Shown here one piece after another: positions 30,865 to 64,000 of a stretch of 64,000 nt of DNA (position 1 is the stretch's first letter; every line of letters begins with the position of its first letter). Both the position numbers and the translations under genes were made by a program. The stretch spans positions 1,178,001 to 1,242,000 of the forward strand of contig OZ374563.1 in assembly GCA_977862235.1 (NCBI GenBank). Reading direction: 5' to 3'. Source of the stretch: Dudresnaya verticillata (taxonomy: Eukaryota). The notes beneath the pieces are model-generated. The model saw only the letters and a program-made list of their open reading frames with translations. It ran no database searches and was not told the origin of the DNA.

Positions 30865-30865
30865 G

Positions 30866-31712
30866 TGTGGTATAACGAAGTCCACGGAGACGCGGGGAAG
30901 TCTCGCACTGTAAGGAATGGCCTCGGAGCCTAACGAATGGCCTCGTAGCCTAACGGAGAAACGAAAAGGGGTGGTATCGTGGTAGAGCGGAGCGACCAAC
31001 ACGAAGGACCACGGTGTCAACGTATTCGTGTGCGGAAGGGAGAACTCGAGCGATCGATCACCGGGGATGACTCCGGGTGCGCGGGGCTATCGAAAGCGAG
31101 ACTCGACCGTATCCGCGGTCACGAAGACGAAGACACCGAACTCGAAGAAACATGCGTTTACCGAAGACTCCGAGGTCCGGGCGCTAGTCGCTTATCGGGA
31201 ACCCTCGGAGGTTGTGCCAGACGACTGGCTACTAAGTAGTACTACGTGAGCACGAGTGCGCGTCAACGCGGGAGACGGTTCGTACTCGAATGATTCGTAA
31301 CGGCCTCGGTTCCAACGAACGGTCGTCTCACGTATGGTGGCGGTTACGAAGTGCGCCAGGGATGCATACGGAGGTGCGCACGCTTCGTGGGCCTCGATGC
31401 CGTTACGCGCGGGAAACAACGGGAAAGTCACAAAGGTGTCAGCGATTTCGTATCGGGTGCGCACTGTAATGCGAATGCCATCGTGGCGCGCGCGATCACG
31501 AAGTCAGCTTGGAATCCGTCCGGAGCTGTCAGCGATTTCGCATCACGTGCGTGCTGTAAAGCGAATGCCATCGTGGCACGCGCAGAGTATGCGCACTGTA
31601 ATACGTTTGCCATCGTGGCGTGCGCATTCACGGAGTCACTTCGAAATTCGTATTTCTCGACTATTTTTCACGTAGACCACGGAGTCGTTTTGCGCATAGC
31701 GTCTATACCACA
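30866..31712 (-). repeat. G2 5' LTR
   Basis: Direct repeat of 18835-19680, followed by TSD copy GTGTT at 31713-31717. Confidence 0.95.
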
Positions 31713-31944
31713 GTGTTCGATCGGAATTCTACAAGATGGTTGCTGACGACCCTGTCCAAACCAAGTTGATGATGCCTGTCTTCGAGAAGAAGAACGGCAT
31801 CGCTGCTTCCGATGATCTGGTCGAGCCAATGGAGAAGCTCGACAGCCTCATGTCCAACCAGCTTATGAAGGAGGTCGCCACACTAAGTGCCAGCAACGCA
31901 ACGAAACGTGCAGGCAAAGGTGGTGCCGGTGGCGACAATTAGTC

Positions 31945-33911
31945 GGCATACGTTCTCGGCGCCCTCTTTGGCGTGGGACGCAGTCTCGCGTCGGGGCATG
32001 GCGCCAACTCGGCTGCTCGGAGTTCCTCTGCCGAGCAGTCCGATTTGGGATATTCGACCATCCAGATATCCCTTTTCAGCCAGGGGCTGGGGAAGAGTTG
32101 CCGAGTATCCCACAGTCCGCAGAGGACAAGGCCTTTGCAGAAGCAGACCTTACAGAGGGGTGCTTATCCGGGATATACAACGAAGTTACCCCGTCGTATG
32201 CTGCAGAGGCCAAGGCCCGGGGCTCTATTTTGTCATCTGCCTTTGTTGTAAGGCAGGATGGCGCAGAGGAGGGCCCGAAGGGCCGCTTCGTCGTGAATCT
32301 CGCGAAACCGTCAAAGCACTCGCGCAAGGGGTCAGTTCGGAAGGAGTCGATGTCGGACTTCGCGATGCAGATCCAAGAAGGAGACCACTTCCTATCAATG
32401 GACATGTACAAAGGCTACCGTCATTTTCACCTCGCTCCTGCCATGCGCGACTGGTTTCTGTTCCACTATCAGGGCCGTTACTACCAGTGTGTGGCGCTGC
32501 CCTTTGGTTGGGGCGGTCTCCATTATGGTTCACGCAGCTAATGGTTCCCTTCGTTCAGGAGTTGCGCAAGCAAGGCTTTCGAGTTCTAGCGTATCTGGAC
32601 GAGTTTCTGATAGTGTCGTCAGTGCTAGGGATCGTCGCCACTCTCCGGCATTGCCACTTTGCAGCGAAGAAAATTGGCAAGCTGCTTCTCTCACTCGGGC
32701 TCCGTCGTCACCCCGAGATGGGATGTTGGTTGGGAAGTACCAACATCGAGCACCTTGGCGTTCGGATAGACAGCGTGGCGATGCGATTCTTCATCGCCAC
32801 AAGGAAGGTGGACTAGGTTCAGTCACTCGCCCGCAAACTACTTTGAGAGGTTCGCTCGGGCCGGCGCTGGGTGAGCAAGACAGTGTTGGCGCACTTCTGT
32901 GGTGCTTGTGTTTCCCATACGCTGGCTATGCCCTGGGCAAGATTTTATACGCGTGCACTGTATTGGTACATGTCGTAAAGAAAGCAGTCTCGCGATGGTC
33001 GGGGTCGCGTGAGGTTATCGCATCAGAGCATCCGTGATTTGCGCAAATGGCGGGAACGCAGTGCGCAGGAATTGGCAGGCCGCCCCATGTTTCCGCCACC
33101 GCCGACAGCGGCGTTGCATTCGGACGCAGCCGATGTTGGCTACGGCGGCACTCTGAACTTCGAGGACTTACGCCGCGGGGTCGATGGGAAATGGCGCGCG
33201 CAGGGGATCTGGAGTTGGAGAGACCGAACCAACTCCATCAGCTATCGAGATCTCAAGACAGTCCGAATGCTACTCACCGGGTCCTTGGGCGCCAAGGTTT
33301 TGGAGGGACAGCATCGAAGCTTTCTTTTACATATAGACAATCAAGCAGCCGTCCACTTCACCAACGCCCTTGTCTCCGGCAGCCGCCCCATGATGAGGGA
33401 ACTGCGCAGGTTGAAGACCGTCCTCGATCGCCACGGCCTGTTTATCAAGGCGGAATGGATACCCTCCGCGGTGAACAAGTTCGCCGACGGATTGTCGCGA
33501 CGCTTCTAACGCGGAGACTTGCGGGTCAGGAGGCAGCTGCGGCGTTCCTTCCCGGCTGGAATGAGGGCTCCGAGGGACGCTTTCCCCTATCGCCCCGTCG
33601 GGGAGAACCCCGTCATGGCACGGCGGCAGGCGTACAACGAGCTGTCGGCTCCGTGGAAGCCGGACGAGGTACGCCTGCTTTGTCCTCCGATCGACCTGAT
33701 CCCAGCGACCTTACACAAGCTGCGAACGACGGCGGCCCCGCCGATGATGCTAATTCCAGATTGGCCTCGTCAGGGCTGGTATGCCCAAGCTGTCCGTATC
33801 GCGACGCGGGTGCAGAGGCTCTACAACCACACGGCCGAGGAGACGTGGGCCGGGTACCGTCGTCTGAACCCACAGTGGCGGGCGCTGCTCCTCGACATGA
33901 ACCTCGCTTGA
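31945..33911 (+). pseudogene. DIRS RT - RNase H - Dam-like methyltransferase remnant
   Basis: KGRFVVNL, SMDMYKGYRH, LPFGW, YLDE (variant of YLDD), HSDAADVGYGG, IDNQ, WIPSAVNKFADGLSR and MT-like CPPIDLIPATLHKL...LIPDWPRQGWY. Several stops and frameshifts. Confidence 0.9.
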
Positions 33912-33931
33912 CCGGCCGATCTGCTGGCCGG

Positions 33932-35757
33932 ATGGCGCTTGCCGATTGTGGCATAGCTGTAAGACCAGCTGTGCCACGCAAGCGCAGCTGTAAGACCAGC
34001 TGCGCCACGTGTGCACTGCTGTGCGCACGCTGTCAGACCGGTGGCGCCGAAGCCCCGCTGAACTGTAAGGAAGTGCGCAGTGGCGCCCACGTGTGCACGC
34101 GTTCGCGTGTGACACTGAAACTCCCATGTAATATCTACGTTTATTGTTTTGTAGTGTACAGCACCGTCTAGTGTAAGCGGCGGTCGAACGCCCTGCTGTC
34201 CTGCGCACTGTGCGCACGCACTCCGGCGCAGAGCCGTTGAGTGCGTGACACGCGCGCGCGTACTCCGGCGTCGAGCCGTTGAGTACGTGTGGACCGTTTC
34301 GCCTACGCGCGCCCCCGGGTTACCGTTACCCGTACACGTCGACGCGTGTTGGGGCGCGCCGGAGCGCTTCCCGGGTTGGTGCCGCCGCAGGCCCTGTAGT
34401 ATATCTAGTAGTCGCCCCTCTGGGCTTCAGTAAACCAGGCAAGCCAGCCTACGCCAGGCTTGCCCTTTCTGCTTTGGGTATCTTTCCCAGTCCTTCGCCC
34501 TACGGCTTCCCTCTTTCCCTAGCCGCCTAGGCTTTCCTTTTCCTTTCCCTACCGTCGGCTTCGTGAGGCCCCACGACAGGGACGCAGGGATCCGGCCGCT
34601 GCCGCCCGCGTATGGTACGCCCCGTGCGCGCTCAGGCTTCGACGCCGTTGATCCGCGACCGTCGACGGCGCGCGCGACCGACACCGCCGCTCTACCACCA
34701 CAGTTACCACCCTTCGACGGGTCTGGGTGCGACTGATCGACCAGCGCAGCTAGACGTCAGTTCGACCTGACGTATATGCCACACCGATGCCGCCTTGGCC
34801 CGAATGGGCGCACATGTGCCCACGCTGGGAATGATCCGGTCGTCGCGCCTATTGGCGGACTTCGTCTGGAGTGGACGCACAGCCGCCACGCGGAATTCCC
34901 AGTGGCGGGCGTGGTTCGAGTTCTGCACTGTAGAGCAGCGGACGCTTCTCCCAGCCACGGAGGTGCACTTGGTGGCGTTTGTGGGATGGCTGGTGGCGGA
35001 ACGGGAGGCCAAGCTGCGGAGAGTTGCAGCGTCATCGCTGCCGCAATATTTCAGTGCGGTCCGGCAGATGCAGGTCATCCTGACTGGGTTCCTGTGCCGC
35101 CTTTCCCATTCCTTTCGCACGTCCTGCGCGCCTACTCACGGTGGGAGGAGACCGAGTTCCCGCAACCGGAGACGCGTTGCGGCATCCTGCTTCCGCGGTG
35201 CAGACAATCTGGGGCATGGGAATGACGACGTCCAGCCCCAGCAGTCTACGCGACGCAGCTATGGTTGTGTTCGCATTCTGCCTCAATGGCCTCCACGAGA
35301 GCTCGGTGACATCGCTGCCCGCGGCGGCCGTGCGCATCACGACGGACGCTGTGGTGGCGCACTTGGCTGTGGCTAAGGGCCAAATGGCCAGCTATGTGCC
35401 CCTGGTACGCTACGAGCGACTCTCTGGAGAGCACCCTTCACCGCTCGGCCTGTGGCAGCGCTGGGTGCAGGCACGCGGCGGCCACCCCTGCTTCTTCGGC
35501 CTTGATGGCGAGCGCCCCACGCTTCCGCCTGGCGTGATGACGCGGGCTTTGGAAAGCTGCCTTCGCGCTGTGGGAGTAACGCCGCCAGCCGGTGGGAAAT
35601 ATAACCTCATTCGCTGCGCATAGGATCGCACACGGAACAGGTGCTGTTAGGATTCCCGTTAGAGTTAGTGCGATTGGCGCGCTTCGGTTGGGGACCTCGT
35701 AGCGCAGAGATAGCGGCGACTTACTTTGACCGGACGATACAGCTGTCCGCGGCGTAG
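33932..35757 (+). pseudogene. DIRS tyrosine recombinase, interrupted by the solo LTR
   Basis: MALAD|AALARM... rejoins across the TSD. N-terminal TRNSQWRAWFEFC, NGLHES (R to H), HSLRIG, RFGWG and TYFDR. Confidence 0.87.
33947..34783 (+). repeat. Solo LTR of the G1 family (837 bp)
   Basis: TGTGGCATA...TATGCCACA termini with 5-bp TSD CCGAT at 33942-33946 and 34784-34788. Confidence 0.93.
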
Positions 35758-39181: not shown

Positions 39182-40201
39182 AACCCTTCCAAAGTACATG
39201 CGTTGGAAAGGGCAGCGTCCCCTGAGCACGCTGGTGCAAACGGAGTAGAGAACTAAGTAGTAGTTCGCGAGTTATGTCGGTTGGCGTGCTAACCCGGCAG
39301 CGTGTCTGAAATAGTTAATTTTGCTGTAATTTCTGAACTTTTTTAATTCGGATTTTGAGGTAACCTGGGCTACTTCCATGGGCCCCTCTCCGCGCAGTAT
39401 ACGCTGCCCCGACAGTACAGAACTACTCGTCAGTTCAATGCCGCTCTCCCCGTGACATGCAGAGTACTGCAGCACTGCCAGTAATTCCCTTCCCGGACAC
39501 ACTCCGGTGCAACTTCGGGCATTCGTCACCCGTCAACTGCACGCTACACTCTCTACTGCCATGCACTCTCTGCTCTTCCCTAGGCGTCAGGACTTGCTCT
39601 GCGCATTCGCACTCGCCCGCCACACTCTCCCTCCTCACCGGCACATCGGCTCGTTGTCCTTCGCGACAACCAAAAACCCCACCCAGGTATTGTAATCCCT
39701 GTTTCCCCAACGTTACAGCATGTGCTGCACAGTGCGACGGCATTCATGTAGCGCTGTTCCCAGTGTATACCGTCCTCTCCGTCGACCTACTCCATGTGGT
39801 TTGGACTGGGCTCCGGTACTGAATTTTGTCCCACATTGCCGTGAATTCGCCGTGGTAATAAGTTAGACCTCGTTCCCCGCTCCGGACACCTCTTACTTCA
39901 CCCGTGCAGTTCCCTACACATGTTAGCTGAAGCTCGCCAGACACTCCGGTCAAAACCACAAACGCCCATTTCTAGTCATGCACTTGAACCAACTTCGAAA
40001 GTGCACTCAAAGCCGTCTCCCGTAGTAGTCCACACCACGATTCCTTACTTGCGCCTGTTCCCCTCTTCAAGCGCCTCAGCATGATAAACATACACAACCG
40101 CTCCCGTACTCACTTTATCTGTAACTAACACTCCTCAACTACCTTTACCCTAAACCTCAGTCCGCTTCAGACTCCGGGTCTTCTTCATCGACCTCCACCA
40201 G

Positions 40202-40426
40202 CTAACACCCTAAGAAGACTAGTATTCCCTCCAGCACCACCTTCACCGCCTCCCCAACTGCGACAGCATCCGCAATCATGTCCCATGCCCGCTCCATCAA
40301 GTCCAGACGAAGCCACATGGCGTCACTGGTATGACGCCTAGCTCGCGCCCGAGCTTCTTCTAGCTCGGCGCGCAGTTTCCGCACCTCCAGCACCAACGCT
40401 TCCGGTGCTTCATCGCAACTCTCCAT
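40202..40426 (-). CDS. Small coiled-coil protein, unknown
   Basis: Intact 74-aa ORF with heptad-like EVRKLRAELEEARAR. TATAAAAG lies about 45 bp upstream (40471-40478). Confidence 0.5.
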   Translation of the reverse strand: MESCDEAPEALVLEVRKLRAELEEARARARRHTSDAMWLRLDLMERAWDMIADAVAVGEAVKVVLEGILVFLGC

Positions 40427-40608
40427 CTAAGTCGTCTCCACCAACCCTCAAACCGACACTGTACCACTCCCTTTTATAGACGGAACCGGGCACCATTCTG
40501 AAGTTTAGTTGACCTCGTTTACACCAACTGTGCACATCTTTTCCCTATTGCGACACCGCTGCAACGTCGGGAATCTTTAGCATGCAAACCGTTCTTGGTG
40601 CTTAGTTG

Positions 40609-41112
40609 TTATTCTTTTAGCGGACGCGGCGAATCCCAATCGATGGGAGTACCTGGTGGCGGAATGTTCACAATGTTCATCCCTGCGATTCTGCGCTTCT
40701 CTTCATGGACTTTGGGAACTGCTGTCTCATACTGCCGACGTTCTCGTGCTGACAAGTTATCCATGTCTATAAGCAGAGGGTTGGGAGCCATCTCACGCAG
40801 CTTCTGCATTCCTCTCTCCCTTGCATCCCTGAGAAAGTTTCTCAATGCGAAATCTTGCCCGCGCCCTGCCACACTGTATTTCCCTTCTTTCCCTATTACA
40901 TCCGTCATGAAACTCTTGAAGACCGACGTGTCAAAGAGCTTGATGCTCAGAGTTTCTAGACCGATTATTTCCTTCCCTGCGCTGCTGAAGTATATCAATA
41001 TACTCTCCAATCTAGCCACTCCGATCCGTTTCAGGATGTCCTTCGCACACTCCCCTTCCTTGCACAAGTCGGCTACATTCAGGGACTCCATTTTCTGGCC
41101 CACTTCCACCAT
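40609..41112 (-). CDS. Hypothetical protein; start uncertain
   Basis: 167-aa ORF with protein-like composition and no recognised motif. Confidence 0.45.
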   Translation of the reverse strand: MVEVGQKMESLNVADLCKEGECAKDILKRIGVARLESILIYFSSAGKEIIGLETLSIKLFDTSVFKSFMTDVIGKEGKYSVAGRGQDFALRNFLRDARERGMQKLREMAPNPLLIDMDNLSARERRQYETAVPKVHEEKRRIAGMNIVNIPPPGTPIDWDSPRPLKE

Positions 41113-41824
41113 ATCAAATGTTACGTCCTGCAGCTCTGTCAGACATTAACGGTGTCAGACGGGTTTCTGTGCTCCAATCTGTTATGCTCGATAGTGCCAT
41201 TCATGTACCATGCACGATTCAAGTTCAATGGCATGCAGTCCTGAGTAACTGAGCGTGAGCAACTTCCGAGACTCGGTGAGGGGCGCTTCCTGTTGCAGCA
41301 GTTATCTCAACATCGCGGTGGCGGGCTTCGGTCTTCATTATTGCTTCGTGCCGTAAACTGTCGTGAGAGATGTCTTACAGGATATATTGTTCCCACTTCT
41401 CTCCACAATGTGTATGGGAGAGAGACCGAGCTCATCACATGAACCTGAGATTCGAATTGCCCACGTATTAATTGGCACGCGTATTAGCACACGTTTTTGT
41501 CCTACCCAAATTTAATTGACGAGAATCAGAATCTCCCTTCCACCACCGTTTCGGTTGCACTCAAACTGTACGGTCGTCCCCAGGGCAGTTACATGACGTA
41601 AAGACACGTATCTTTATTCCGTCGTTGAAAGAAGGCACACAGGGTCTCCATGCGATACACAGTGTGATGTCTGTCTCCAAGGCTTAGACTATAGCGGTAG
41701 TCTGTGCGGTCAATGCGGGAAAGCTCACTTGCCACCTTGCACGCCCCTTACGGGGTTTGACTAAGTTCTTGAATTCGCTCTACAATCCTTCACGGCCATC
41801 TAGGTAATCACCTTCATATTCGGA

Positions 41825-44754
41825 ATGGGTGGTGGGAAGCGAAAGTCGAGAGGTGCTGGACCTAAACAGATTCCTCGATCCACGCAGACCGCAAAAGCTC
41901 TATTCGCCGACTTAATAGATGGTTCCGTCAACACAAGAGTAGACCCCGCTTCCTGTATTCCATTGACGGCCATTCGTCGTATTGTGAGGTCTGGACTGGA
42001 GCGTTTGAAGGCACGCTTTGATGTGTCGCGCAAGGACCTCCACGATCCTCGAGCCAGTGCAATTGGATATGTTGCTGGTTCTGACGCTCCCATTGTAATT
42101 GAAATGTCTGGGTCCTTTCGATCTTCGGTAATTGAGCACTTCCAACAAAAGTTGAAAAATGCGGAACGTCATACTCGCAAAAAGAATCCGTGGAAATGTC
42201 AAAAACTCGAGCGAAATGGTATGGAGTAGTGGACGGGATGCACAGACTTATAGCTATCACAGAACTCCGGGAGGAGGATTACGGGACGTGGAAATCTTTC
42301 TCATGGCCTGTTACTGTTCTGAGAGGGAGCCATGAATTGCAGTCACTTCGAAAATTGGCTCGTCACCAAAATGACAAGCACGATTCTTCATTCTACATCG
42401 AGACTACCTTCTTCGATACTCTTCGAGGCCTGAGAGAGGAGGCAGATCGTCTCACAGCGGGGAATGGCGGAAAACTTCCGAATGCCACGAGGATTGCTGA
42501 AGCCTATGACGGATGCAACCATTTCAGGGACAATACTGTTAAACAGACTGCTCAGACTGTCCTTAGACTTGACCGCGCAGTGATTGCCACAATCGGAGAC
42601 ATTATAGACGAGAATAGGGGTGATATGGTCTCGATTCGATCTACAACTGTGGATCACAAGGACATCAATAAGAGTATGGACTGTCGAGTGTACCGCACGT
42701 TCATCAATGTAACATCTCTCAAGTCCGCAACAGTGTTCATGAACGCGTCAAAAGCACCGGATGGTGTACAAGCACAGATTGCGACTTTATACCGTTTGAG
42801 AGAATTGCACCGTTTACACAACTTCAAAACGCTGTCTTACCGGTACACCGTGGAACAGTTTCAGAAGGCCACCGCCGCTCTTCACGAGGTTCGTAAGTTT
42901 GAAGCTCTCCGGGAAAGTCACGAGTGACCAGAGTCCATGCAGGTGCTTCAATCTAACCTTCTCAATACACAGAAGATGGATGACGAGGTTGCGGAGAATA
43001 TAGGAAATGACAAGGACATTGTGGCATCTATACTGGAATTGTACAGGGATGTCTGTCCCCAGGAAGCTGCTGTTAAGGAGAAGAAGCATGCCGACTTGCT
43101 TAAGAGCTTTGGCGGAAATAAGACAACACATAGTTCAGGACAGTGTCCAGATAATGCCGCTCTGGAAGGGTCGCACTTGCACTGTGATAGTGCCGAGCGC
43201 ACTGATTGTGGAGATTCCGCTCCTTCACCAAAACCTGGGGCACCTGTTGATAAACAGAATTGCAAGTCTGTCGCCGCGGGATGTGTTGGCAGTACTACTG
43301 GTTCCGGAACAAACCCTTCAGAACCGCAGGGAAACGAGCAGGAATCACCAAATGAGGATGGCAACTGTGGCAAAACACATGAACACAAGAAAGGGACCGC
43401 TAATAGCCATGCTGGAGACACTGGGGAGGACACGAATGGCCATCTGGAAGGGAATGCAAAACATACACGATCGTCCGCGTCTACCATACAGTCTGAAAAG
43501 CTCGAAACATCAGGTAATGAAGAAGTCGATGCACTGAATTCAATGAGGATCAGCTGCCATCACATGAGGTGGCAGACGTATGACCAGTCCGTTCGAAACG
43601 ATTCGAGCCCACTGTTAGACCTCGTACTGACGGACCCTCCGTACGGAATACCGCCTAGTAGTTCGAATTCTGGTACATCTTACGACAATTATATCAGCGA
43701 TGGGGAGATTAAGCAACTCATCGAATTCTGTCGAAGGGTCGTTAAACCTGGTCACTGGGTTTTCATCTTCTGCAGTTTCATTAACTTCGCAAAGTATCAA
43801 CGTGCTCTGGTTGATGCTGGGTTCGACTGCCGGGAATATCCCGATACCAGGACATTGCAGGGACATCGTAATGACTATCCACATAATGATACGGAAATAG
43901 CCGCGTTTGGTCGCCGACGGGGAACGTGTGGGGAAAATTCAAGCCTGACATCTCCAGTCCACTTCACTTCTTGGGAAGCAAAGAGCGGCGAAATTTCGCA
44001 ACCTTCTCAAGTGTTACAGTATCGAGACAAAAGCTGCTGAAGCCAGGGACCAAATCCCCTGTTCTGGTAGAGGAGAAGAACGTTTTGGCTCTAATGGAGG
44101 TCATGACAAATTTCTGTCCCGATGGTGGACGGGTTTTGGATGCCTACCGAGGTACCCTGACCACTTGCATTGCAGGTTTGAGAACGGGGCGTCCGACTGT
44201 GGGCATCGAGCAGAACCCTGCAACATTCAGACTGGTATATGATCGTTTGAAGAAAATCGCAGTCGATGTGTGTAATGAAAAGCAGCGCTCTTCCACACTC
44301 ACTGTCGTCAAACGGCAACACCGCGAAACGACTACCGATACTGATTCCGCTGCGAAGAGACGGAAAGTAGTAAAGAATGAGGAGAATGTGATAACTTCAA
44401 CTGTAACAGACCATGAACCCGCCAAACAGAAACGAACTAGTCCGGAAGGCTCAGAATATGATCCTCTGCGGGGTGCTTCGAAGGTAGTCCTGCTTCAAAG
44501 ACGGAGATAAGGTCGGAACAGCATCTGTGAAACGAAGTGCTGAGAGTTCCAAAATAACTGAGCCTCTTCACGGAGTGTCGTTGTCGAAGGTTGCCAGGGA
44601 AGGAGAACAGCTCGTCTCTCTTTACGGATTCAGCACATTACCTGGATGTGAGTCCCGGAAGTATCCGTATAGTTTCACATGCCAAGAGGAAGCGCTGGAG
44701 ACGCTGAGTGGGCTGGTGGGGTTCTTTGCATGGGATTTGCACAAGTTAGAATAG
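41825..44754 (+). pseudogene. ParB/Srx-like domain fused to a beta-class (permuted) amino-DNA methyltransferase, probably N6-adenine; disrupted
   Basis: YGVVDGMHRLIAI (ParB-like). LDLVLTDPPYG (motif IV) precedes VLDAYRGTLTT...GIEQ (motif I region). Frameshifts near 42190 and 43930; stops at 42927 and 44510. Confidence 0.82.
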
Positions 44755-45504
44755 TCATACAATCATCTCTCGATAAGAGGAACCAGTCCGTCGACCCAAG
44801 TTGTTCCTCTAATAGGGCGGTTTTACTTAGGAAAAGGTAGAAAAAATTTTAATATCAACCTGAAGAGAGTAAACAACCCTCATACCGCACAGTACTTAAA
44901 AAATCTACTGGAAGTAGTTCTCTATCCTAGTCTGCCTGGCAGATGTGCATGACTCCGCCTTGACAGCCCGCTGTTTCTGCGCAATACAACGTCTAAAGGG
45001 CGGCGTGTCCTCCCCATATCTCTCCGCAATTCGCTGGCAAATTTTTTTCTGGAGAATTGTGAGGGTTATAAGCGTCATTGTAGAGTGTCTGGGACTTAGT
45101 CTACTCTAGCGTTGCCGTGAAAGGCGTTTATGTTAAATAAGGCTGCGTTTCAGCTCTACCGCCGTCGTTATCATCGCCTGGAGGCCTTTAACGGTCGTTT
45201 TTTACAATATGAACGTTGTAGTGGTGCCCCTCGGGCGTGAAGTGTCGGTTTTAGATATCGAAAGTGGAACTACTGTTGTTTTTTGATATAATTTCGCTTC
45301 TCCCAAGTGCGGAGACCCGTTTCGGTTTCTGTAATAGGGGGTTGCCCGTTATGACGGGTTTCACTAATCGAGAGATGACTGTAGTACGATATTACCGTTA
45401 GAGTAACCTCCGAGATGCATATTGGGTATAATCGAGCTTTTCAGAATCCTCCGTCTACAGCATTTATTCCAGATCAAATGCGGCTTTGCTGCAATGGCCT
45501 TGCA

Positions 45505-46194
45505 ATGTCTGGAACGTGGACAACGACATACCCCATGAACTCCTCACATGTACATCGCGACCGAATTCCGAGTCTTGACCCCACGACAATGTTGCGTGTA
45601 GTTCAGACTCTTCGGGCTGAGGTTCTTGAGATGAGGTCGTTCATTGACGACGTAGGACTGCGCCTGGATGCCGTATATAGCGATTTTTCAACCGCGTGGG
45701 AAAGGTGGTTGTACAGGTGATGAGGTTTGCCAGGCAGGCTCGGGACAGACTACGTTTAATTGAAGAAAGGTTGGGAATTGAACACAGAGAGGAGGTGGAC
45801 ATCGAGTTGGATTCAGATCCGGAATCACATTTGCCTGCCCCTCCAGTTTGATCGCCATTGCACTGCACACCGACATGCCTAGTGAGAAGCGGCTAGAAGA
45901 GAAATCAGAATCACGCGTCAAACACTCCAGGAGCTGAGAGATGAGATTGACGACCTCCGTCTGCAGGTTCGACAACTGCAGACGAGAGCAAACTATCTCG
46001 ATAACCAACTTCGGGCCGTGGCACAAGCCGTGAGAGAGATTGTGTATGGTGAAGGCAGGCGTGCTGTGAACGCGCTGAGGAGCATTAGGGGGATAGTCAT
46101 TGCCCTATACAGGGCGATTACCAGAATGTATGGTCCAGCACAGAACGAACAGAACCCCGGTTCGGATGGAGGGGGGGATACTGGAAATGTGTAG
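45505..46194 (+). pseudogene. Two tandem small coiled-coil ORF remnants (45505-45851 and 45875-46194)
   Basis: VVQTLRAEVLEMR...LRLD and TLQELRDEIDDLRLQVRQLQ heptads. Each needs one frameshift. Confidence 0.4.
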
Positions 46195-46571: not shown

Positions 46572-46913
46572 CCGGATAGGTTTTCACATCACGACCTTGC
46601 AGAAACCTAAAAACTATTATTAATATTGACGAATAGATTTTCACGGCGCGCGAGATCGAGTATCAGTTTAATAGGTATTTCTACACTGAATCTGGAAATA
46701 CCTATATAGGTCTTTTCTAAATCACTTTCACAAAACCTATTGCAATAGGTTTTGCTGTTGCCGCGTCAGAAATACCATTATAGGTATTTGCAAGCACGCA
46801 AACAGAATACCTATTAGAAAGGTTTTTGCGTCGCCGGGTCGAGAAAACCTAAAAACTAATATCGATATTGCCGGATATGTCCTGGCGGCTCGCATTCGCA
46901 GAAACCTATCCGG
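46572..46913. repeat. Dyad-symmetric array of eight 35-bp inverted-repeat units (ATAGGT-N23-ACCTAT consensus)
   Basis: Units start at 46576, 46633, 46671, 46706, 46745, 46780, 46818 and 46875. Gaps are 22, 3, 0, 4, 0, 3, 22. CCGG flanks both ends. Confidence 0.9.
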
Positions 46914-47229
46914 TCATCTCGGAATCACACAGTCCCGTCGCTGCAGGCACGCGACCGCGCGGTCGGTATGACACACATCAGAATAGCTGCATCTGCTTCC
47001 CTGCCCAAAACTACCCCTGCATATCACACCCACACCCTCAGCTGTATGTGCCGCCCTGAGCAGGCTGCAGTCGCAGCACAGCGTCGACGTCCGCCTGGTG
47101 TGGTCGAGGTCTGCCGCGTCTGCTGCTGCGCTAATCGAGCGTAGAAGCGCGCGCAATACGCTCCCATCATCATCGCGATATTGTTCCCACAGCGGCCGCG
47201 CCCACGCCTCCGGGCTGCTTCCGTGTTGC

Positions 47230-49217: not shown

Positions 49218-52200
49218 CTACGATTTCTGTAGGGAGTCTCGTATCTTCTTCTTAACGGCTTGGGGCAGGCATCTATTAGACAGCTTCTTAAACTCAACGA
49301 GGACAGACGCGGCATCAACATCGTCAGCCCATTCCTTCTTGGTTCTGGCGTAGACAGAAGGGCGATATTTACCGTCCCACGCGTCCTGTCCTGAACCAAC
49401 CTCATACCACTTGATTGAAAGGGTGCAAACAACACCTGCGATATCCTTCTTCCAGCCCTGTACCTGTGCGATCCAGAAAGTCACATTGTTGTCCTTAATG
49501 TTTAATACCACGAAACGGTTGACACCATTCTGAACCATTCTGAAGCGGCCGAAATCAGTGTTACGGGCGCGGTAGGTTGTGCCCTCGCTATGGGCAATCC
49601 GACGAACGGTACTAAAATTGGTCTGTTCGACCATAGGCAGCTGCCTGACCTTCTCCGCTACTGCGGGTCTTGTCGTGGGCAGTAGGCCCCGAAGGAACTG
49701 ATGTGTCAAGTTCTCATCGGAGTACACGCCAGCGCAGGCGTCCACATACCCTTCGAGGCGAGTAGCGAACTCAAGCTCGGACTCGGCGTCCCTCTGCTTG
49801 GCGGTGGTCAACCGGTCATGGGCGTCTGCGATGACGTCGTACGTGACGAACCTCTCGACGAGGGTATTGACCACCGAGGCCCAGCAGGGTGGGATGCCGC
49901 GCTGCGTTGTGCGCACTCCAGAGAACAGGTGACTCGAGTACACCTGCGACGCGGTTCCATCGAGGAACCAGGACACCACACGTGCCGCTGCGCCTTCGGA
50001 TAGTCCAACGCAATTGAATGCTTGGCGTAGCTTTCGAAGCACACCAAGCAGGCGAATCGGCTCCTTGCCGTCGAACCGGTCGAGCCGGGGCATCAGGGCC
50101 TTCGTGCGGCTGAAAATCTTCGCAGTGTTGCCACTGCACACCTGCTGTTGGTTGTCTCGCTGATCTACGTCATCGAGACGGTAAGAGCGGTAGTCGATCG
50201 CCTTAGCGAACTCTGCCACCAACGTGGTTAACGGCTCGATGCCTGCCATGAGTGGGCCCCAATGCCAATAGGCAGAGACGGGGCCCTCGTGCTGTTGGGA
50301 GGTCGGTCCCCCCTTTGTGTTTTGCCCGTCGAGGGCTTGTTGGACCAGCCTGGGGTCGACCCCGTAGAACGGATTGCGGTCCCCACTCGGATAGTGCGAC
50401 CCCGCCGCACTCCTCGGTGGAGATGGCGGCGGTGAAGGAAAGCGATGCCGAGCTCGTTGCTCGGCAAGTATTGCAGCGGCCAATTCTTGAACTGCACCCG
50501 CTGGTGACTGCGGTCGCGGAGGAGAGCGCTGCGCCGACGACGGGCCCGTAGCCCGCTGGCGTTGCCGCGTCGGCGCGCGCTCTATCAACTCAACGCGGCG
50601 GCGGAGCTCATCGAGGAGGCCCTGTGACCGGGTTATTATGTCCTCGATGGACGCCAAAGGACCGCGTGGAAGCGTGTCCAGGTCGTGCTGGCCGTCAGCC
50701 TTCGCCGTAGCTATCGAAGCTGTAAGGTGGTCGTACACCTCGGCTAGCGAGTCCATGGTATCCTCATACAGCAGGCTTCCCATCCTTTCCCTTCTCCGAA
50801 AACCATGGATAATGATAGAAACGACCTCCTCTTCGGGTGAAGGCTTTTTCCCCATGTATATTGACAAGTATGCCGTCCTCGTTAGACGAAAGGAACAAGC
50901 TCTTGGGGTAGAATGTCTCGTTGTTTTCAACCGACAGCTAGTACTGGTGTCCCCGAGACAACCCGTGCACGAGCTTCATTTCAGAAGCACTAGGTTCCAT
51001 GACCGTAACGTCGCCTCGGAGAACCATCACGCTGTACGGTGGGATTGTTACCAGCTTGGAAGCAACACAGCCCAACATCAATTCCCTCGTTTCGTCGTAC
51101 CTCATGTTCCGGTAGATATGGGACGCGGGCCAGATGCACAGCACCGTAGGTTGTCGGCCAGTGAACTTCACAGTCACGTTCGAGATGTAGGGCGCTTCTG
51201 CATACACAGGCAATTTCCGCTCGGAACGGTAAGTCCTGTCCGGATTCCACCGGGAGGAGGTGGCGCAAATTTCGTGTGAGGAAACGTCCTCATGAATCCT
51301 TCTCCTACGCAAACCAAATAGGATCCACCCAACGGCATCTCCAAATCAGTGTCGTCCAACGGAAGGCCGAGGCTGCCAAGAAAGGAAGCAATCAATGTGT
51401 CCCCAAAAACCTTCGCCCTTAAAGCTTCTTCGATGCGTGTCGTTGCGCCTCTACTTGAAGGTGTTCCGTATGCGCTATCGCGATAGGACGATGAACTGCC
51501 TCCTGGGACATTACTCTCGATTTCTGTTGTGAACCAAAGATTTGAGCTCTTGACCCAGAGATTCTTCATGGCCACTTTTCGGTTCTTCTCCCAATCCTGA
51601 GCTAACGAAATTTCAACACTTCCACGGTTGTACATGACTTGAGTCCAGGGATGTTTAAGGTTGAGCTCCAGGGAGTGCATGTTGTTTCCACAAGCATCAA
51701 TTTCATCCCGAACAGGTACATCGGCATGGTTGAAAGCAGCTTGCATGAAATCTATGTACGCGTCAGTATTTGACTTCAGGCCTCGTCCTCCAACGCCTCT
51801 AGAAAGTGCACCAATGTCAACAACAAACCCCTCGCCCTGTAGACGCTTGGAAAGCACGTGAAAGTGGCATTTGTTGTTCATGGTTGCTTCGTCAACGTGC
51901 TAGCCAAAGACGCGGGTTCCGGGCACATTCTTCGAAGGACCGTCCTTTCCACTTACTGCAAACAGTAACGCCATGTTGATCTCGGCAACGTCGCCCCACT
52001 CAAGGTAGTAGGAAAACCTTGACTTACCCTGAATTCCGTCTGGCAACATCTCAACGCCTTTCATCCTTGATGTGTAAGGACTGAAGACCATCCAGTCCGG
52101 CAGGTTGGGAGTACCTTGTCTATGAGATTCCCGCACTTCCCTATCCTGAACGGCATGGAAATATGATCCGGAACGGCTTGGTATGCGTGAAATGGGCCTC

Positions 52201-54971
52201 TCCCCGGGCATAGGACGACGAGTTCCATTATCTATGCCCGCTTCCTTTGAGACATCCAAGTTTCTGCCACTGGCAGGATGGGATGCAACTTGGCCAGCCC
52301 CCTTCTTCTGTCCGATGTACGGATATGAAGAACCATCGGTATCTGTCTCATCTGACATCTCCATATCTGACGCTCTCATGGAAAGGTCAATTTCTGGTAG
52401 TGAATCAAGACTTGGCGCTCGTGGCTCTTGCGCTACCGCGGCTGCATCAACTGCGAATGGAGGAGAGTCCAATCGGCTTCGAACTACACGTACTGCAGGT
52501 CCTTTCACGGGTCGCCTTTGGGGACTTGCTTCTTGTGCGTGTGATCCTTTCGCCAGTGCATTAGGCGAAATGCCGTCGCTAGTCTTCTCTAGAGGCGCCT
52601 TATCGAAAATATCTCCAGAAATATCCTCCTCGCCTGTCACTTCGTGGACCTTGCCTTCAGATTGTAAACCATGCCCTGGGGCACGTGCCGTGTGGGTACC
52701 CACATCACGTTGCACAGAATTACTTTCCACGTCGCCCGCATCTCGTTCGTTTGGTGGAGTGCTCTCAAGATTTGGAAAGCATTCAGAACAGAATGCCAAC
52801 ACATCTATCCGGATATTCCCCGGCCAAGGGCAGGCCCTCCCGGCCATTGTCGATAACTGCCGATTGATCGGAAGCATGCAAAGTTGCATCTGGCTCGGAG
52901 TCGGATGAACTAGCTTCGAGAATTGCTATCATCTCCTTCACTCTTTCCTCCTCCAACCTTTCTCTATATCTCCTCTCCATATCCTCGTATCAGTTCGGTG
53001 GTACGGTGTTCATAGGCCTAGTTCTATTCGATTGGCGACCAGGACCCTTGCGTCTGGCATCCTTGTTGATTGCAGCCACACGCGAGAGTTCTTGTTGCTC
53101 TTGAATTGGCATTCTCTTGATGGCTCGCTTCATTGCTGTCGTCCTTGCTCCATAACTCTCTTGGATCCTTCTCCAGACCTCACTTGCAGTCTCCTGTTTG
53201 TCCGGGGTTGGAAATTGTGCCGGTGAGATGCCGGCTGACGCGTCATCTTCAGATTCACTGATCGAAATTGGTTGTTTTCCACAGAACGTCCTTGCTTCTT
53301 GTTGACTGCCGACCTCGGGGGCTCCCTTTGCTTGGCTGCGATGTCGACATCGCATGTCTTCGACGCGCGTTTGGGCATCTGTCGAACCTCTCCTCTCGCG
53401 AAATTCGTTTTCGGTGAACGACCTGACCTCGATAAAGGACGTTTCCCTCTGTCATCGTGCATTTCTGGAGACTTGCGCCCGACCTTGCTACGCGGTTCGG
53501 CTCCAGGAATATCTTGTGCTCCAACACCAGCAGGGTCTTGCACATGTATATCTTTGGAAAGGGTACTTGATGTACGCCCCACAGATGGGAATCTACCCGT
53601 CCTTTCATTGCTAGCAATGCCTGCGATGAATGCCCGAGCATCCGCAGTATTACTAAACGGGGGCGGGATGCCAGTACCGGATATGCCTTCGTGCGGAACG
53701 CGGGTTGTAGGCATAACACGTGGTGAACGGCGAAGTCCCTGTCGCCCGCTTCGGTTTCCGATGTCTTGACTTGGGCCATCAGAGGATATTCCAATTCTTC
53801 GGCGCACTGTACCTTCACCAGGACTACGCACGGACTCGGTTTCCTGCTCCAAACTGTTGCGACGAAGCGTACGCTCGCGCACTCTCTTGGCACGTTTCCC
53901 TGGGTCACCTGTACGACCTCCTTCGCTGCGACGGCGTTGTTGAATCGAACCTTGCCTTTCTCCACCTACAACTTCCATGGAAGGGGCCCTATCGCGAGAT
54001 CCAATCCCATTCCTAGAGCCCCGCAACGCAGGAGTCGCGACGCTTTTTCAAGTGATAGAGTTGGAAAGGATGGGTGGCAATATTATGTCCTGCGCGGACC
54101 AGATCGCATTTCCGTCGCTGTTTCCTCCATCCGACACCGAGTTTTTTTCACTGAGTCTCGCGATGACACGGTCCAGCAACGCCTTGAGAGATATGATTTG
54201 TGAGCCGACAATACCATCTGCAGCTGCTTCTGACAAGCTACCCCCGAGCGGGATCTCTAGCGTTTTGCCAATCTCTGCAACGATCGCTAGAATACCGCCA
54301 TTCACATTCACACTCCCAATCCGATACGATCCTTTAACCCAAATCCGGTTGGACACTTCGGGTCGTTCCCGCAGGAGTTCTGCAGAGAACTGCACCAGTC
54401 TTCTAATCGTAAACACGAAGTTTCGAACGAAGACTGCGGGCCACTCCTTCTTGCGATTCTCCGAACGTTCCAACATACACCTTGTTGACGTTGCAATCAA
54501 CACCGCAACCTTCTCCACGCATCCGCATTCATGAAATTCGTGGCACTTGAACACCTCGTACACAACCGCAAAACCACCATCGCATTCCAGCAACCGCATA
54601 TACACGTCGAATGCGCGCTGCATTTCTGCTCCAGTCATGGAATGCGCAGTATCAAAGTAGATACTTTTCGTTGTACGCGACGCAGAGTGAAACGCAAGGT
54701 CCACTTCGTTCCCTGCAACCACTTCCTCAATCCGACGAACTTGTCTCTCAAAGAGCTCATAAAGCCTTGTATTGTTTTCCAGCTTGTCGTTGAAGGAGCG
54801 CACGTTTTGGGAATGGAGAAAATCGCGCAGCATGCCCATGACGACTCGCTTCATCTTGCAAGCTTGTCCTAGGATGACTAAACCCCAGCTGTGCAAGGAG
54901 AAAGGTCCTTGAAAGGACAAATCGCGAATCCCGGAAAGAGCGCGAGTTCGGTCGAACTGTACAGACATCAC
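49218..54971 (-). pseudogene. Long disrupted gene: N-terminal globular region, disordered linker with a Cys cluster, 2OG-Fe(II)/PhyH-like segment, BAH/SH3-like C-terminus
   Basis: Abutting ORFs are joined by in-frame stops (52990, 51900) and frameshifts. Motifs FPHTK, LCIWPASH, IPPYSVMVLRGD and FWIAQV...SIKWYE...YRP. Continuity across the gag insert is unproven. Confidence 0.5.
49564..50774 (-). mobile_element. gag: LTR-less gag fragment of a G1-related family
   Basis: LLYEDTMDSL...EGTTYRAR is collinear with G1 gag (about 10241-11452). No LTR or TSD. Confidence 0.92.
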
Positions 54972-55438
54972 GACGTCAAACTAGCACCAGCAAGGCCAAA
55001 TCACAACGTTGTAATCTGTGTGGCGGTCGCCACGCGAACAGATTTCGCGACGCGTCTAGACTGAGTGCACCCGACTGTGACACCGACCTTGCAGATAGGC
55101 TCCGGTGGCGAGCGGTCTTCTGAGGTAGCGGAGAAGGGGCGCGACCTGGCGAAATGTAAAAAGGTTTCGGCGGTGTTTCGAAACACAGTTGTGCACTTGT
55201 GCGCAGCAGCCCGTTCGCGATACGCGCTTTGGTGAGCTTCCCTTCCCCCGACTGCCGTCAGGGTCAGGTGGGTGGGCAGTTGGGTGTTGGCTTGTGGGGC
55301 GCCAAGGGGGCGGGTGTGCGCGCAGAAGTGTCGACAAGAGGTATTGTTTCGCACCAGTCGGAGCACGCGCGTGCTGCCCGTGTTGCGTTTCACAATTTCT
55401 AAACCTGTAAGGTTCGTGCGAACGCGCGAACCTGCGCG

Positions 55439-55942
55439 TCAGAAGGGAATTCCCAACGATCGGCGGGCAACGGAAGCAACCGGCAAACAACAGCGTTCTG
55501 AAATTACAAAAAAGACAGGCCTGTGAAATGCCGGCATTTCCTTCAACAATTTCTCAGATAAAATACATGGGCCAAGCGCTTGAACAGCTCTGGACCGTGT
55601 CCCTGCAGGCATGCCCTCACGGCATGCCACAATTACAATTTCCGTGCCCTGGGTTCGATGGAAACCCACGTCGACACGCACAGGCTCCACTCCAGGTTTC
55701 TGGAATGGCTTCAGGAACAAGCCTCCGTGGTGAACACTCCAATAACAAGCAACTATCGCGTATTTGTGAAGGGAGGTCTGGTTATCACCACGTGTTCCAA
55801 TCAAGTGTTGCGGATGATGGTGCTGTATTGCGGTATCAACTGCTGGACACCTATCAATGTGTATCATATCATAAAGATCCCTCCCGAACCCTGCTTTCCT
55901 CACAATGCGTTGCAGAGCAGGTACCGCTTTATCGTGAAACAT
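55439..55942 (-). CDS. Hypothetical protein fragment, weakly 2OG-Fe(II) dioxygenase-like
   Basis: TAIQHHHPQHLIGTRGD...VACYWSV...GGLF spacing recalls the double-stranded beta-helix core, but the HxD motif reads RGD. Confidence 0.3.
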   Translation of the reverse strand: MFHDKAVPALQRIVRKAGFGRDLYDMIHIDRCPAVDTAIQHHHPQHLIGTRGDNQTSLHKYAIVACYWSVHHGGLFLKPFQKPGVEPVRVDVGFHRTQGTEIVIVACREGMPAGTRSRAVQALGPCILSEKLLKEMPAFHRPVFFVISERCCLPVASVARRSLGIPF

Positions 55943-57684
55943 TTTGAGTACTCAAATGGGATTAATCCAATAGAGTAAGTGTGCAAGCTTGGAAATGATG
56001 ATATGCATCTCATCGTGAGGGATTTAGCGCTCGGTTGCCACGGCTGCATGCGGTCTGAGTTCCAGTTTTCCCGTTCGGGATGTGTCGACACCCAGATGCG
56101 TCTCGGGGAAACACAGTTTTTGCAGTTTGCAGTTTCCCCTTTTGTGGTTTGTGAATGCACAAATGCTGCTTGCCTTCAGACAAGAGGTCTTGCTCCTACC
56201 TATACCTATAGGTAATTCTATTTCCTTTCCGATGTGTTTCTAACGGCATGGTCATTACGTTATACTATTATAGCTACAATACTGGGATATATCGTATATT
56301 GTAGCAACAAAGTCTTTTCTTGTCGATGTGAAGGGGTCCGGGGAACCCTTCGTAATTTTTTCCGGTGAAGAGTTGTATTTTGTTTCTCTGCATTGAAAGA
56401 GTAAGTCTAACCTTACTGCTAGGTTTGTAGCCAAACGCATATATGCGTTTGTATACGGTATATATTTGTATATAAGAATAATTACTCATGAAGCCTCTGT
56501 CATCCTTTCGGCCGAGGTACTCGGCACTTCAGTAAGTATTCTATAGTTACTGAAATAAGTAAGTCAGTAAGTATCTGAATTCTACTTCAGTAAGTATTCT
56601 ATACAGCTACGATCCTTTCCCTTCTTTGGAAAGGATGCCTCTAAGAAATCTTGTACATGTACTAGAAGCTCAGAGTGGTGTTCCACTAGAGTTCCCTGTG
56701 GTGCAATGGCCGTACGCGGCTGTAGAGCACCCCCGAGAGTTCGGGCTCGGGAAGGTAGCTGCGCGATCACGCGTGAGAAAGGCGTAAACGCGGTGGTAGA
56801 GCTAGGAAGCAATCCGGCGGCGGACTGTAAACACCGTCGGGTTGTGTGTGGGCGTGGACGCCAGCAGTAGGTGTAAACACCAGTGAAGGGGCGTAGACGC
56901 CAAAGGTGAAGGGAGGATGAAGGGATAAGGGGAGGACCGGAAGGGGTGTGCTGGAGAGGTAGAAACGGGGGAAATGAAGGGAGCCGAGCGCGGCGCGGGG
57001 AGGAGCAGCAGGGAGGTGCGCGTAGGGAGCGTCGGGCAGGCGGTTGGCACGGGTTGCGCTAGCCTTAGCCCGCGGTGACGCCGAGCAACGAGCTCGTGGG
57101 TCAGGCGCGGGGGAACTCAGCTGCAGAGCCCATGCTTGGGGTTGGTTTACTGAGGGTGGCCGGCGCCACTCGCCTTAAGTCCCTGGCCACGGCGGTAGGA
57201 TAGCTAGGGCTACCATACACTACCTACAATAAACTAACACTGACACCTCAGTGTACCTAGTGTACACTGAGTGTCGACTACTGTAAAGGGAAATGTAAGT
57301 AATAAGAGCGCGCGCGGGCAGGCCCAGAATGGGCTGCGCGCGTCCGAAGTGGGCCGGCGTGGCCACGTGTGCTACCTAACGAACACAAGTGTGTACGCCT
57401 TCGCGAGTAACGCGCTGATCACGTGTTAACACGAAAAGGGGCAATATCGTTGCACTACATTCCCCATATTCCAACTAGGAGTACCACGGGAAAGGTTAAG
57501 TTCTTCGCGCTCGCACTCCAAATCCCTGCACCCTTCGGGTAGTTGCTCAAGAAATTGAGGGCGCCCTCCCCGGGGACTTCCTGGCCAGGAAGGCGAACAG
57601 TCCCGAAGCCGAAGTTGTTTCGATTAGCCTAGGCCTAGGCAGACCGCCTCGAATCGATTGGGATTCTAATCGTCTTCCAACGTC

Positions 57685-60600: not shown

Positions 60601-60830
60601 TTCACCTCCTCACTTTCGCTTCCAGTATTACGGCAGCCTTCACCATATTCGGTAGGTATGAAAACGATTCAGGCGGGGAAGAAGGTGGCGCAGAATTCTG
60701 GAGAGGCAAGGTTGCCGCAACAGATTTGTCCATTATGGAAATGATGTGGAACATGAAGAGCCTCGACTTCCGCAGGCTCGATGCGCGATTCTCAACGGCG
60801 AATGAAACTTGCTCTTCACTGTGTTAAGTT
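57685..60830 (+). pseudogene. Long disrupted hypothetical gene(s)
   Basis: Consecutive plus-strand ORFs (57740-58420, 58476-59042, 59809-60744) with protein-like composition and no recognised family. Confidence 0.45.
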
Positions 60831-61848: not shown

Positions 61849-63815
61849 TCAGAAGAATGGGTCAAGCTCCTCGTCATCGAAACGGTGAAGCTTTTCCTCG
61901 TCAATAACTCCATCATCATCCATTGAACAACTGTTTTGGAATGTCTCTTCGCGCTCATGAGTCTCTTGCTGAACTCTAGTCTTTGATAAATGCTCCTCAT
62001 ATTCAGCCCTTGACCGCGAAAATCTGCTTGCAAGTCTGGCACGAATCTTATCCTTGTCCAAGATCATAAGCCCCGTAAATGCATCATGGCCTGTAGGAGC
62101 ACCCACGCCTTCGTCCAGTCCCCGGCGGATACTGTGATTCCCTTCGATGATATCATCCTCAGGCCTTGCCACCATCGTTGCATCCTTCCGGGCTACAGTG
62201 TACAATGTGATGGCGTCTAGGAGAAACTGCTCCATTTTGCTCAATTCCGATCCAAGGCTTGACAATATGATGGCACGGAAAGTAATTGCAATTGTATGCA
62301 AAGCTCTCAGAGAAAGTTTGGTGGACCTCAGAACATTCTTCACTCTCTCCGCTCGTGACGCCTCCATTAGGACCCGAAGTGCAACTGCGTGGAGCGACAC
62401 CTGCTCGTACTGGATCCATTTCCGTTCGATCAAGGGAGCTCTTTCCGAAGCCCTGTTTGATGTTTTCAACCTTTCCTCGTACACTGCCTCATACCATAGT
62501 GTACAGGTTAAGGAAGGGAAATAGGATTGAAGTTTTATGAACTGGATTTCATTTGTCTTATCCACGTTCTCCTTCTCTGTCTCTCCATCCCCAATCTCAA
62601 GTGTCGAAGCTGTACCGACAACTGTCACCAGGCTGAGCTTAGGCATGTACAATTGCATTTCTTCCGCAGAAAGAGGAGGGAGTTTTATTCCATACTCTTC
62701 TGAAACAGTTGCCTTGTACTCATCGAAATATGCAAGGATGAAACCAAACGACTTAAATAGCACGTTTCGGACAGACATCCTTCCCGTGTTAATGGTCCTT
62801 GCAGTTTGCTTCCGTAGAATCTCAGCGGAGCCCATAAACGTCTTCTCCGAAGACCAGTACTTCCTTTCGTCGCCACTCTGAGAAACAGTACAACGTAACG
62901 GGTCTTCACGGGCGCGCTTATGACCGCCCTCCCTAGATTCATGGGCTTTCATGAAAACTTGAACCACCTGTCCTTTCATAGTCTTCTTCTCGAATGTGCG
63001 GACATGTTACATTTCTGTCCTGGATAAACTATTGAACAGTTCACCCATCATTTCCAGAGTGACTGTGTCGATTCTTTTTCCGTCAATGGAAAGTGAGGCA
63101 CAGCCGAGTCTAGAATTCCCTATTGCTCGCCTCGCAGAACGAAGGAAAAATACGTACAGCCATTCGGGCATTGAAACAGATGTGTGTGGTACATTCTCCC
63201 GGCCAGGGTAGGGCACGAAGAATAAAGCCTTCCCCGCCCTCGATGACAAAATCAAACGAAGGACCATTTCAGAGTAGCGCTCCCTCCCCCTGTGCTTGCT
63301 ATAGAAGATTTTTGCATCGTCTTAGTATCGACGCGCTTCCGGCAGAAGAGATACGAGGGAAAAGTGGGAATCGTTCTGAATCGAGATTCGATACCGACGT
63401 CATCACCAACGGAAGTCTCATGAGATGCAGCAGGTGTATCAAGCGAATCTTCCAGAGCTTCAGTTAAATCCGAGTCAAGGTTGGCAGTGAGTGTTCGTAG
63501 AATGATCCACGTTAACCGCGCCCGATCCGCAATGAGTGGTAGCCCAGGAATCTGTTCAAGCTTGTCGAATTTCACATCTTCCTCATACCCGAACTTCTTG
63601 CGCTTGCCGGTACCATCCTTTCGCGACTGCTTGCGCTGCGTACTCATGACATTTGCGTTGTCCATGCTTTGCTTCAGTCCATCAGCAATCGTAGATATCT
63701 TCTGCACTTCGTCTTGTACTTCTTTCTTCAAGGAATCAAACCGGGTGTTGATGAAGTCTTTGATTTCTCGCAACTCCCGTTGGACGACGGAAGCAATCTG
63801 GAGGTTGAAATTCAC
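61849..63815 (-). pseudogene. Hypothetical gene with an N-terminal coiled coil and acidic tail; one frameshift and one stop
   Basis: 63815-63252, 63267-63007 and 62979-61849 join; the last two are in frame across a TAA. Confidence 0.55.
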
Positions 63816-64000
63816 GTCGGGATCGGTGGTACGGGAACAAGCACGACGTGAGTCGTTAGCACAACACTTGTTCTACTGTAGCTGTATCTGCATGTTCATC
63901 GGACCAGAGCCAGTCCTGATTCGACCTCGCTCTTGCGATGCGGATGCTACTATTGCAGATTTTGTCATTTCGGATAGCACCGCTGTGGGGTCCGGCTTGT

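Follow-up and report, generated by a model that had tools for sequence, protein, structure and literature searches.

Positions 41825 to 44754 of the window, which is the whole 64-kb stretch of DNA analysed here, hold a single gene that three frameshifts and a premature stop codon have disrupted. It predicts a protein in which a ParB-like N-terminal half is fused to an amino-methyltransferase, the domain identity of the two halves being assigned with very high confidence, and the locus is a genuine, dead representative of a class of transposon accessory genes that was described recently. By analogy with published algal transposons, the gene is probably transposon cargo. As an explanation of the whole, we lean towards a broken ParB-fold and amino-methyltransferase fusion gene that was likely accessory cargo, intact copies of which would mark their own DNA. 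The locus itself is dead and is not a discovery; its added value is a large family, one clade of which looks active, and a precisely defined candidate binding array. The features are listed in Table 1.

Table 1. Features of the ParB-like/methyltransferase locus and of the adjacent repeat array (window positions).
Feature	Position	Strand	Evidence
ParB-like / helical / linker / N6_N4_Mtase / C-terminal-domain pseudogene, ~950 aa	41825..44754	+	profile and alignments
ParB/Sulfiredoxin-fold N-terminal domain (predicted), approximate limits	41880..42400	+	fold of homologue P0007; cut by frameshift 1
Frameshift 1	42145..42181 (placement range)	+	12/12 frameshift-aware alignments
Helical region, predicted helix-turn-helix, approximate limits	42400..43080	+	P0007 secondary structure; holds the premature TGA
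Premature in-frame TGA	42925..42927	+	12/12 alignments; Trp in all 8 clade-mates
Low-complexity linker, unconserved	about 43090..43540	+	sequence and homologue alignment
Beta-order amino-methyltransferase domain	43550..44260	+	Pfam and PDB sequence matches; frameshift 2 and deletion inside
Frameshift 2	43917..43947	+	12/12 alignments
Conserved ~90-aa C-terminal domain, after frameshift 3	about 44480..44754	+	homologue profile and alignments
Frameshift 3	44491..44509	+	10/12 alignments; other two stop short of the site
Spaced inverted-repeat array, candidate binding array	46572..46915	.	shuffles and motif-blind scan

Extent of the gene and its lesions

The gene begins with an ATG at 41825, and its last stop codon is at 44752-44754. 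In frameshift-aware alignments it is colinear with 12 uninterrupted homologues at 32-44% identity. A profile built from 13 homologues matches the window in four segments that lie in three plus-strand frames (iE 1e-33, 2e-184, 2e-48 and 2e-15), and across all six frames of the window it returned just two further rows, both at iE 6. The motifs named in the initial annotation (VDGMHR, the linker, DPPY and the motif-I-like segment) were recovered where it had placed them. That annotation had also called the copy dead, and the same three frameshifts and TGA indeed recur across the homologue alignments.

Breaks of this kind could be sequencing or assembly errors in a gene that is intact in the organism. 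Frameshifts 1 and 2 are at or beside homopolymer runs of 4-5 bases, against a background in the gene of a run of 4 or more in 24% of 25-base windows, and neighbouring retroelement ORFs are frameshifted too. However, other lesions are of a kind that argues against error. The TGA falls at an invariant Trp, a small in-frame deletion near 43840 has removed two invariant methyltransferase residues, and an Arg occupies the small-residue position of motif I. The copy also deviates at 25 of the 180 columns that are invariant among its 8 closest relatives, and when each of the 8 clade-mates was left out in turn, the window copy always missed more invariant columns than the one left out. The lesions are better explained by decay than by assembly error; a gene still intact in the organism is very unlikely, and this copy is very probably dead.

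The ParB-like N-terminal half

The initial annotation had proposed profile searches for ParBc and N6_N4_Mtase. The second found both methyltransferase fragments, each below the curated cut-off, and ParB Pfam profiles found no match in the window; the ParB assignment was drawn from the predicted fold of the homologue P0007. An AF2 model of the N-terminal part of P0007, built on a 105-sequence alignment, reached pLDDT 86.5, while an earlier full-length fold on a 10-sequence alignment (pLDDT 41) was unusable. Searched against the PDB with Foldseek, the P0007 model gave nothing at E<=0.001, and the best 9 rows were all ParB or Noc (E 0.02-0.2). In BFVD the best match had E 1.8e-4 and ParB/Spo0J rows were numerous. 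In VIA-align a plasmid ParB came out on top (Z 8.2, rmsd 4.4, 213 aligned), ahead of PadC (Z 7.0, rmsd 2.7, 97 aligned) and then KorB, sulfiredoxin and Spo0J, a Z of 7-8 being the usual top score for models without a clear match. The structural alignments to 5k5d and Spo0J extend through the helical region of P0007.

The nucleotide-binding motif of the ParB/Sulfiredoxin superfamily is GxxRxxA, and it is present in the window as GMHRLIA, overlapping VDGMHR at 42229-42246. The same motif attracted weak matches to DndB (E 5e-4, 1/52 relatives), DGQHR (E 0.02, 2/32) and phrog_1033 (E 0.03-0.08, 3/32). On the modelled fold, the N-terminal half is a predicted member of the ParB superfamily; each structural result is modest and all are concordant.

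The methyltransferase half

The DPPY tetrapeptide at 43633-43644 lies upstream of a motif-I-like DAYRGTL at 44139-44159. The catalytic motif IV, [DNS]PP[YFW], thus precedes the SAM-binding motif I, which is the beta order that the initial annotation had read here. Pfam N6_N4_Mtase matches both fragments of the window copy (E 1.8e-5 and 3.5e-4; 25.2 and 21 bits), each separately below the curated PF01555 cut-off of 26.7 bits. That cut-off is exceeded in 3 of 7 uninterrupted homologues, the other 4 of which stop upstream of the domain, and in 9/10 of a second homologue set.

Sequence searches of the PDB with this half placed DpnA, 8urk and CcrM on top (E 3e-20 to 1e-11), with the N4-cytosine enzymes PvuII (3e-4) and N4CMT (7e-3) below them. 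The ranking favours N6-adenine over N4-cytosine without deciding it. Specificity is not readable from the domain itself, since both specificities have evolved repeatedly in N6_N4_Mtase, according to the available text of PMC8885841.

DpnA, CcrM, M.RsrI, M.MboIIA and the bdelloid N4CMT are beta-class enzymes that share PF01555 with the catalytic motif ahead of the SAM-binding motif, whereas the window family differs from them in its ParB fusion and in a non-canonical motif I. The canonical motif I consensus is FxGxG. Where the PDB alignment shows the canonical-type DPFMGSGTT, the window reads DAYRGTLTT. In the 13 representatives that carry a DPPY-type motif, motif I takes the form D-x-[YF]-[AG]-G-T-[LMF], the last glycine of FxGxG being lost in 13/13. 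This alteration, read from the alignments, is a caveat for any predicted activity.

The conserved C-terminal domain, absent from the initial annotation, is common to many relatives. A resemblance to Tnp1/DUF8039-type domains from CACTA proteins of plants was noted but set aside as an identity, since neither Pfam (19 proteins) nor Atlas gave such a match, or a match to any other family.

The homologue family

Searching with the N-terminal ORF brought up 7 proteins (48-57% identity), of which 3 are 887-946 aa long and carry PF01555; an alignment search brought up 17 proteins, and 11 of these measure 887-1042 aa. These uninterrupted proteins have both halves in one chain, so the fusion claimed by the initial annotation stands, and its counter-case, that the halves are never fused in intact copies, came out false. 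In a library clustered at 50% identity, 308 representatives were found at E<=1e-30, and the motif counts given here rest on the 150 of them that were listed. Pfam scans of 52 longer representatives placed PF01555 (E<=0.2) in 49 and found no SET and no ParB_N; the N-terminal half is also covered in most of them. The ParB-like and methyltransferase fusion is the norm in the family.

Forty-seven of the 150 listed representatives are near-complete, defined as covering the ParB motif, motif IV and motif I. DG..R is retained in 18 of these 47. [DNS]PP[YFW] is present in 13 and lost in 34, and DG..R is retained by 10 of the 13 keepers vs 8 of the 34 non-keepers (Fisher p 0.0017, uncorrected for relatedness). 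Such joint retention of DPPY and DGxxR suggests an active subfamily. A midpoint-rooted FastTree phylogeny was built from 58 sequences, with 11 near-duplicates removed. It groups the window copy with its 8 clade-mates (support 0.986), and this clade has DPPY in 9/9 and DGMHR in 8/9; a large sister clade has lost DPPY.

These patterns bear on whether the protein is an enzyme at all. It may instead be an accessory factor that is mainly DNA-binding or structural and that binds arrays for transposition or transcription, its methyltransferase fold being mostly a non-catalytic relic that binds DNA or SAM; TnpA of CACTA elements is an analogy. Loss of the DPPY-type motif in 34 of the 47, the large sister clade that lacks it, and a motif I that is non-canonical even in the 13 keepers are in keeping with such a factor, as is the location of the most conserved columns of the 105-sequence alignment in the N-terminal half. 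However, the window's clade has kept DPPY in every member at about 40-57% identity, and the joint retention of the two motifs points to an active subfamily. A largely non-catalytic factor is the main rival, judged rather unlikely, and catalysis by intact members is preferred. With the DPPY-type motif in just 13 of 47 and an altered motif I in all 13, self-marking is no more than plausible.

The members P0035, P0056, P0060, P0063-P0070 and P0079-P0097 form a large clade of uninterrupted proteins that has kept both domains, with DPPY changed to EPPS, ALPS, QVPR and others, and with DGxHR mostly replaced.

Comparison with phage and bacterial proteins

The initial annotation described the fusion as phage-type, which holds for the domain architecture and does not hold for the sequence, none of the 113 matching phage records covering 80% of a homologue. 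Phage ParB_N and N6_N4_Mtase proteins have the same domain order, ParB then methyltransferase, with the catalytic motif first, but their Atlas clusters are 404-513 aa long vs about 950 aa for the window family. As no more than a lead, language-model features of a homologue resemble those viral clusters (score 0.88); this agrees with a distant phage source for the architecture. Phage ParB-terminase methyltransferases and a ParB-HTH-fused chlorophyte Dam are covered in the available text of PMC4738411; unlike the phage ParB-terminase loci, the window has no terminase among its 134 ORFs searched with Pfam.

That resemblance is what could be said for the locus being phage or bacterial DNA, present as contamination or as a recent insertion. 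Against it, 113 phage records match a homologue and the best 20 of these match the methyltransferase part alone at 25-31% identity. Pattern scans, which reach just fairly close relatives, retained 0/21 candidates from prokaryote genomes and 0/160 and 0/94 from viral contigs; from metagenomes they retained one locus of 1003 bp out of 232 candidate stretches. The flanks moreover consist of chromodomain Ty3 elements and a DIRS-like remnant. Phage or bacterial DNA is already largely refuted and is extremely improbable as the source of the locus.

Genomic surroundings

The first 36 kb of the window hold the chromodomain Ty3 retroelements and the DIRS-like remnant, and a Ty3 gag fragment lies at 49563-50774. 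Together these mark the sequence as eukaryotic repeat DNA, in agreement with the repeat region seen in the initial annotation; a red seaweed is a guess at the host, made on the strength of published parallels. The large DNA element that it had also supposed was not recovered: Pfam found no transposase among the 134 window ORFs (105 beyond 36 kb, 29 before), and the gene is not bracketed by any inverted match of >16 bases. The search for terminal repeats gave just three inverted matches, 13-16 bases long, and these were treated as chance. The flanks of the pseudogene are decayed and interrupted by the gag fragment. Beyond 36 kb, and the gag fragment aside, no ORF has a family match above the curated cut-off, and weak PHROGs matches were seen.

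A host gene, or one acquired horizontally on its own, to which the repeat array described below is unrelated, would agree with the failure to find a transposase or terminal repeats and with neighbouring ORFs that gave weak PHROGs matches and no family match above the curated cut-off. It sits poorly, however, with hundreds of diverged, apparently intronless relatives and with a pseudogenised copy in a repeat-dense setting, and there are published examples of such genes within transposons in the available parts of PMC12477816 and bioRxiv 10.1101/2025.02.11.637652. We regard a host origin as very improbable and retain transposon cargo as the preferred reading.

A spaced inverted-repeat array

The array, 1.8 kb downstream of the pseudogene, is made up of six good TAGGTWTT-N17-AAWACCTA sites, at 46577, 46672, 46707, 46746, 46781 and 46819, together with two degenerate sites; the repeat period is about 35 bp. 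Its core half-sites number 10, against a mean of 0.17 and a maximum of 2 in 2000 shuffles. A motif-blind scan found it to be the sole array of its kind in the 64 kb and found none in 10 shuffles, and a scan of viral contigs for the array pattern found it absent.

Half-sites and the 17-bp spacing are conserved across the sites and the spacer sequence is not, which gives the array the look of a multi-site protein-binding array. On this sequence pattern it is likely to be one. The chance that the ParB-like methyltransferase is the protein bound there is put at slightly short of even; the array may instead serve a different protein or be part of a different element.

A perfect 24-bp palindrome at 46731-46754 forms the approximate centre of symmetry of the array, whose outer ends (CCGGATAGGTTT) are inverted copies of each other. 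No target-site duplication was spotted by eye. The array may be a small non-autonomous element, though this lacks support.

Relationship to known transposon accessory proteins

ParABS systems combine ParB with a ParA partner and with unspaced parS palindromes of ~16 bp. No ParA was found among the 134 window ORFs with Pfam, and the window array differs from parS in its constant 17-bp spacer. The ParB-like methyltransferase works at most like ParB and is not a ParABS system.

In the available text of PMC12477816, the 21.5-kb Ectocarpus DNA transposon Sola1-1_Ec32 encodes a 1104-aa accessory protein with a ParB-like and an N4C/N6A methyltransferase domain, and the authors suggest that proteins of this kind attach to the transposon encoding them and modify it. 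As described there, it resembles the window protein in combining both domains in one ORF of ~1000 aa. By contrast, the window copy is dead and has no transposase found in the window, its family adds the conserved C-terminal domain, and the window adds a defined spaced-repeat array.

Red-seaweed Plavaka elements carry a cassette of related parts. According to the accessible text of bioRxiv 10.1101/2025.02.11.637652, PAG2 is a methyltransferase (PF01555) with SET, and PAG3 is an N-terminal ParB-like domain with a 2OG oxygenase, with 7BNR as its best match; 7BNR is also Foldseek rank 2 for the P0007 model. Tandem inverted-repeat arrays adjoin PAG3 in Plavaka elements, and the cassette is mobile between Plavaka, Mutator, Zisupton and Fanzor-encoding elements. 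A full cassette would place PAG1, PAG3 and a Plavaka transposase less than 15 kb apart; the ORFs around the window gene gave no family match above the curated cut-off, the gag fragment aside. As far as these descriptions go, an array beside a ParB-domain gene is found in the window as well, but the second domain of the window protein is a methyltransferase instead of the oxygenase of PAG3, and the SET domain of PAG2 was found in none of the relatives scanned (0/7, 0/10, 0/52 and 0/19). The window protein falls outside the definitions given there for PAG2 and PAG3 while holding parts of each; it may nonetheless be a homologue of PAG2, with the N-terminus left unannotated. Chondrus EnSpm elements are given as 16-20 kb with 4-5 ORFs in the available text of PMC6431247.

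The design has already been published, in the accessory gene of Sola1-1_Ec32 and in the Plavaka cassette of red algae. The idea of a self-marking transposon protein is likewise not new: the accessible text of PMC12477816 states it for Ectocarpus, and binding and chemical marking of the own transposon DNA by algal ParB-methylase accessory genes is proposed there and in bioRxiv 10.1101/2025.02.11.637652. No experimental test of such proteins was found in the literature covered, in which subscription papers are mostly absent.

Predicted function

The intact protein would be an accessory gene product of a large eukaryotic DNA transposon. Its ParB/helix-turn-helix half would recognise the spaced inverted repeats of the element itself, probably binding as a dimer because each array site has two inverted half-sites, and this would bring the DPPY domain onto the element's DNA. 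There the domain would add an exocyclic-amino methyl mark, more likely to N6 of adenine than to N4 of cytosine, and the mark would help the element stay transcribed or would regulate its transposition. Active self-methylation by the intact clade-mates, predicted from their motifs, is put forward tentatively.

A stronger and more speculative version, which we consider doubtful, is that intact members of the DPPY clade are eukaryotic ParB-type sliding clamps with a methyltransferase attached, which would load on the TAGGTWTT-N17-AAWACCTA array of their own transposon and spread a bacterial-type mark, 6mA or 4mC, over the element, while sister clades that have lost catalysis would serve as readers or decoys. 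If true, this would be a private, transposon-encoded epigenetic system. The material for a test is at hand in a clade of uninterrupted proteins with both catalytic-type motifs, a precise candidate site, and sister clades that naturally lack the motifs and could serve as controls. Should such a test succeed, it would mean a ParB clamp in eukaryotes and one more independent path by which bacterial amino-methylation has entered their DNA.

Other features of the window

A 178-aa ORF with no family match (40612-41145, minus strand) is head-to-head with the ParB-methyltransferase gene, about 680 bp upstream, and small broken coiled-coil-like ORFs flank the gene at 45385-46191 (plus strand) and 40170-40440 (minus strand), with generic coiled-coil matches alone at 45886-46191.

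The region 49221-55951 (minus strand) is probably one long decayed gene, interrupted by the gag fragment, with a folded N-terminal part, a long disordered linker, a folded part and a short C-terminal part. A PAG3-like gene was suspected here from VDVGFHR near 55600 and was set aside, as profile comparison, homologue search and PDB sequence searches gave nothing. Long decayed ORFs at 57704-60741 (plus strand) and 61852-63872 (minus strand), with no family match above cut-off, are possibly genes of the same or another large element.

The DIRS-like remnant occupies 31816-35620 (plus strand), with weak RVT_1 matches (E 0.02-0.04) followed by a weak match to the N-terminal part of phage integrase (E 0.04). 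Long near-identical repeats (90-94%) at 18033-19680 and 30865-31712, in direct and inverted orientation, are likely LTRs with internal short repeats. Another inverted pair, 95% identical, lies at 11685-12203 and 33946-34465.
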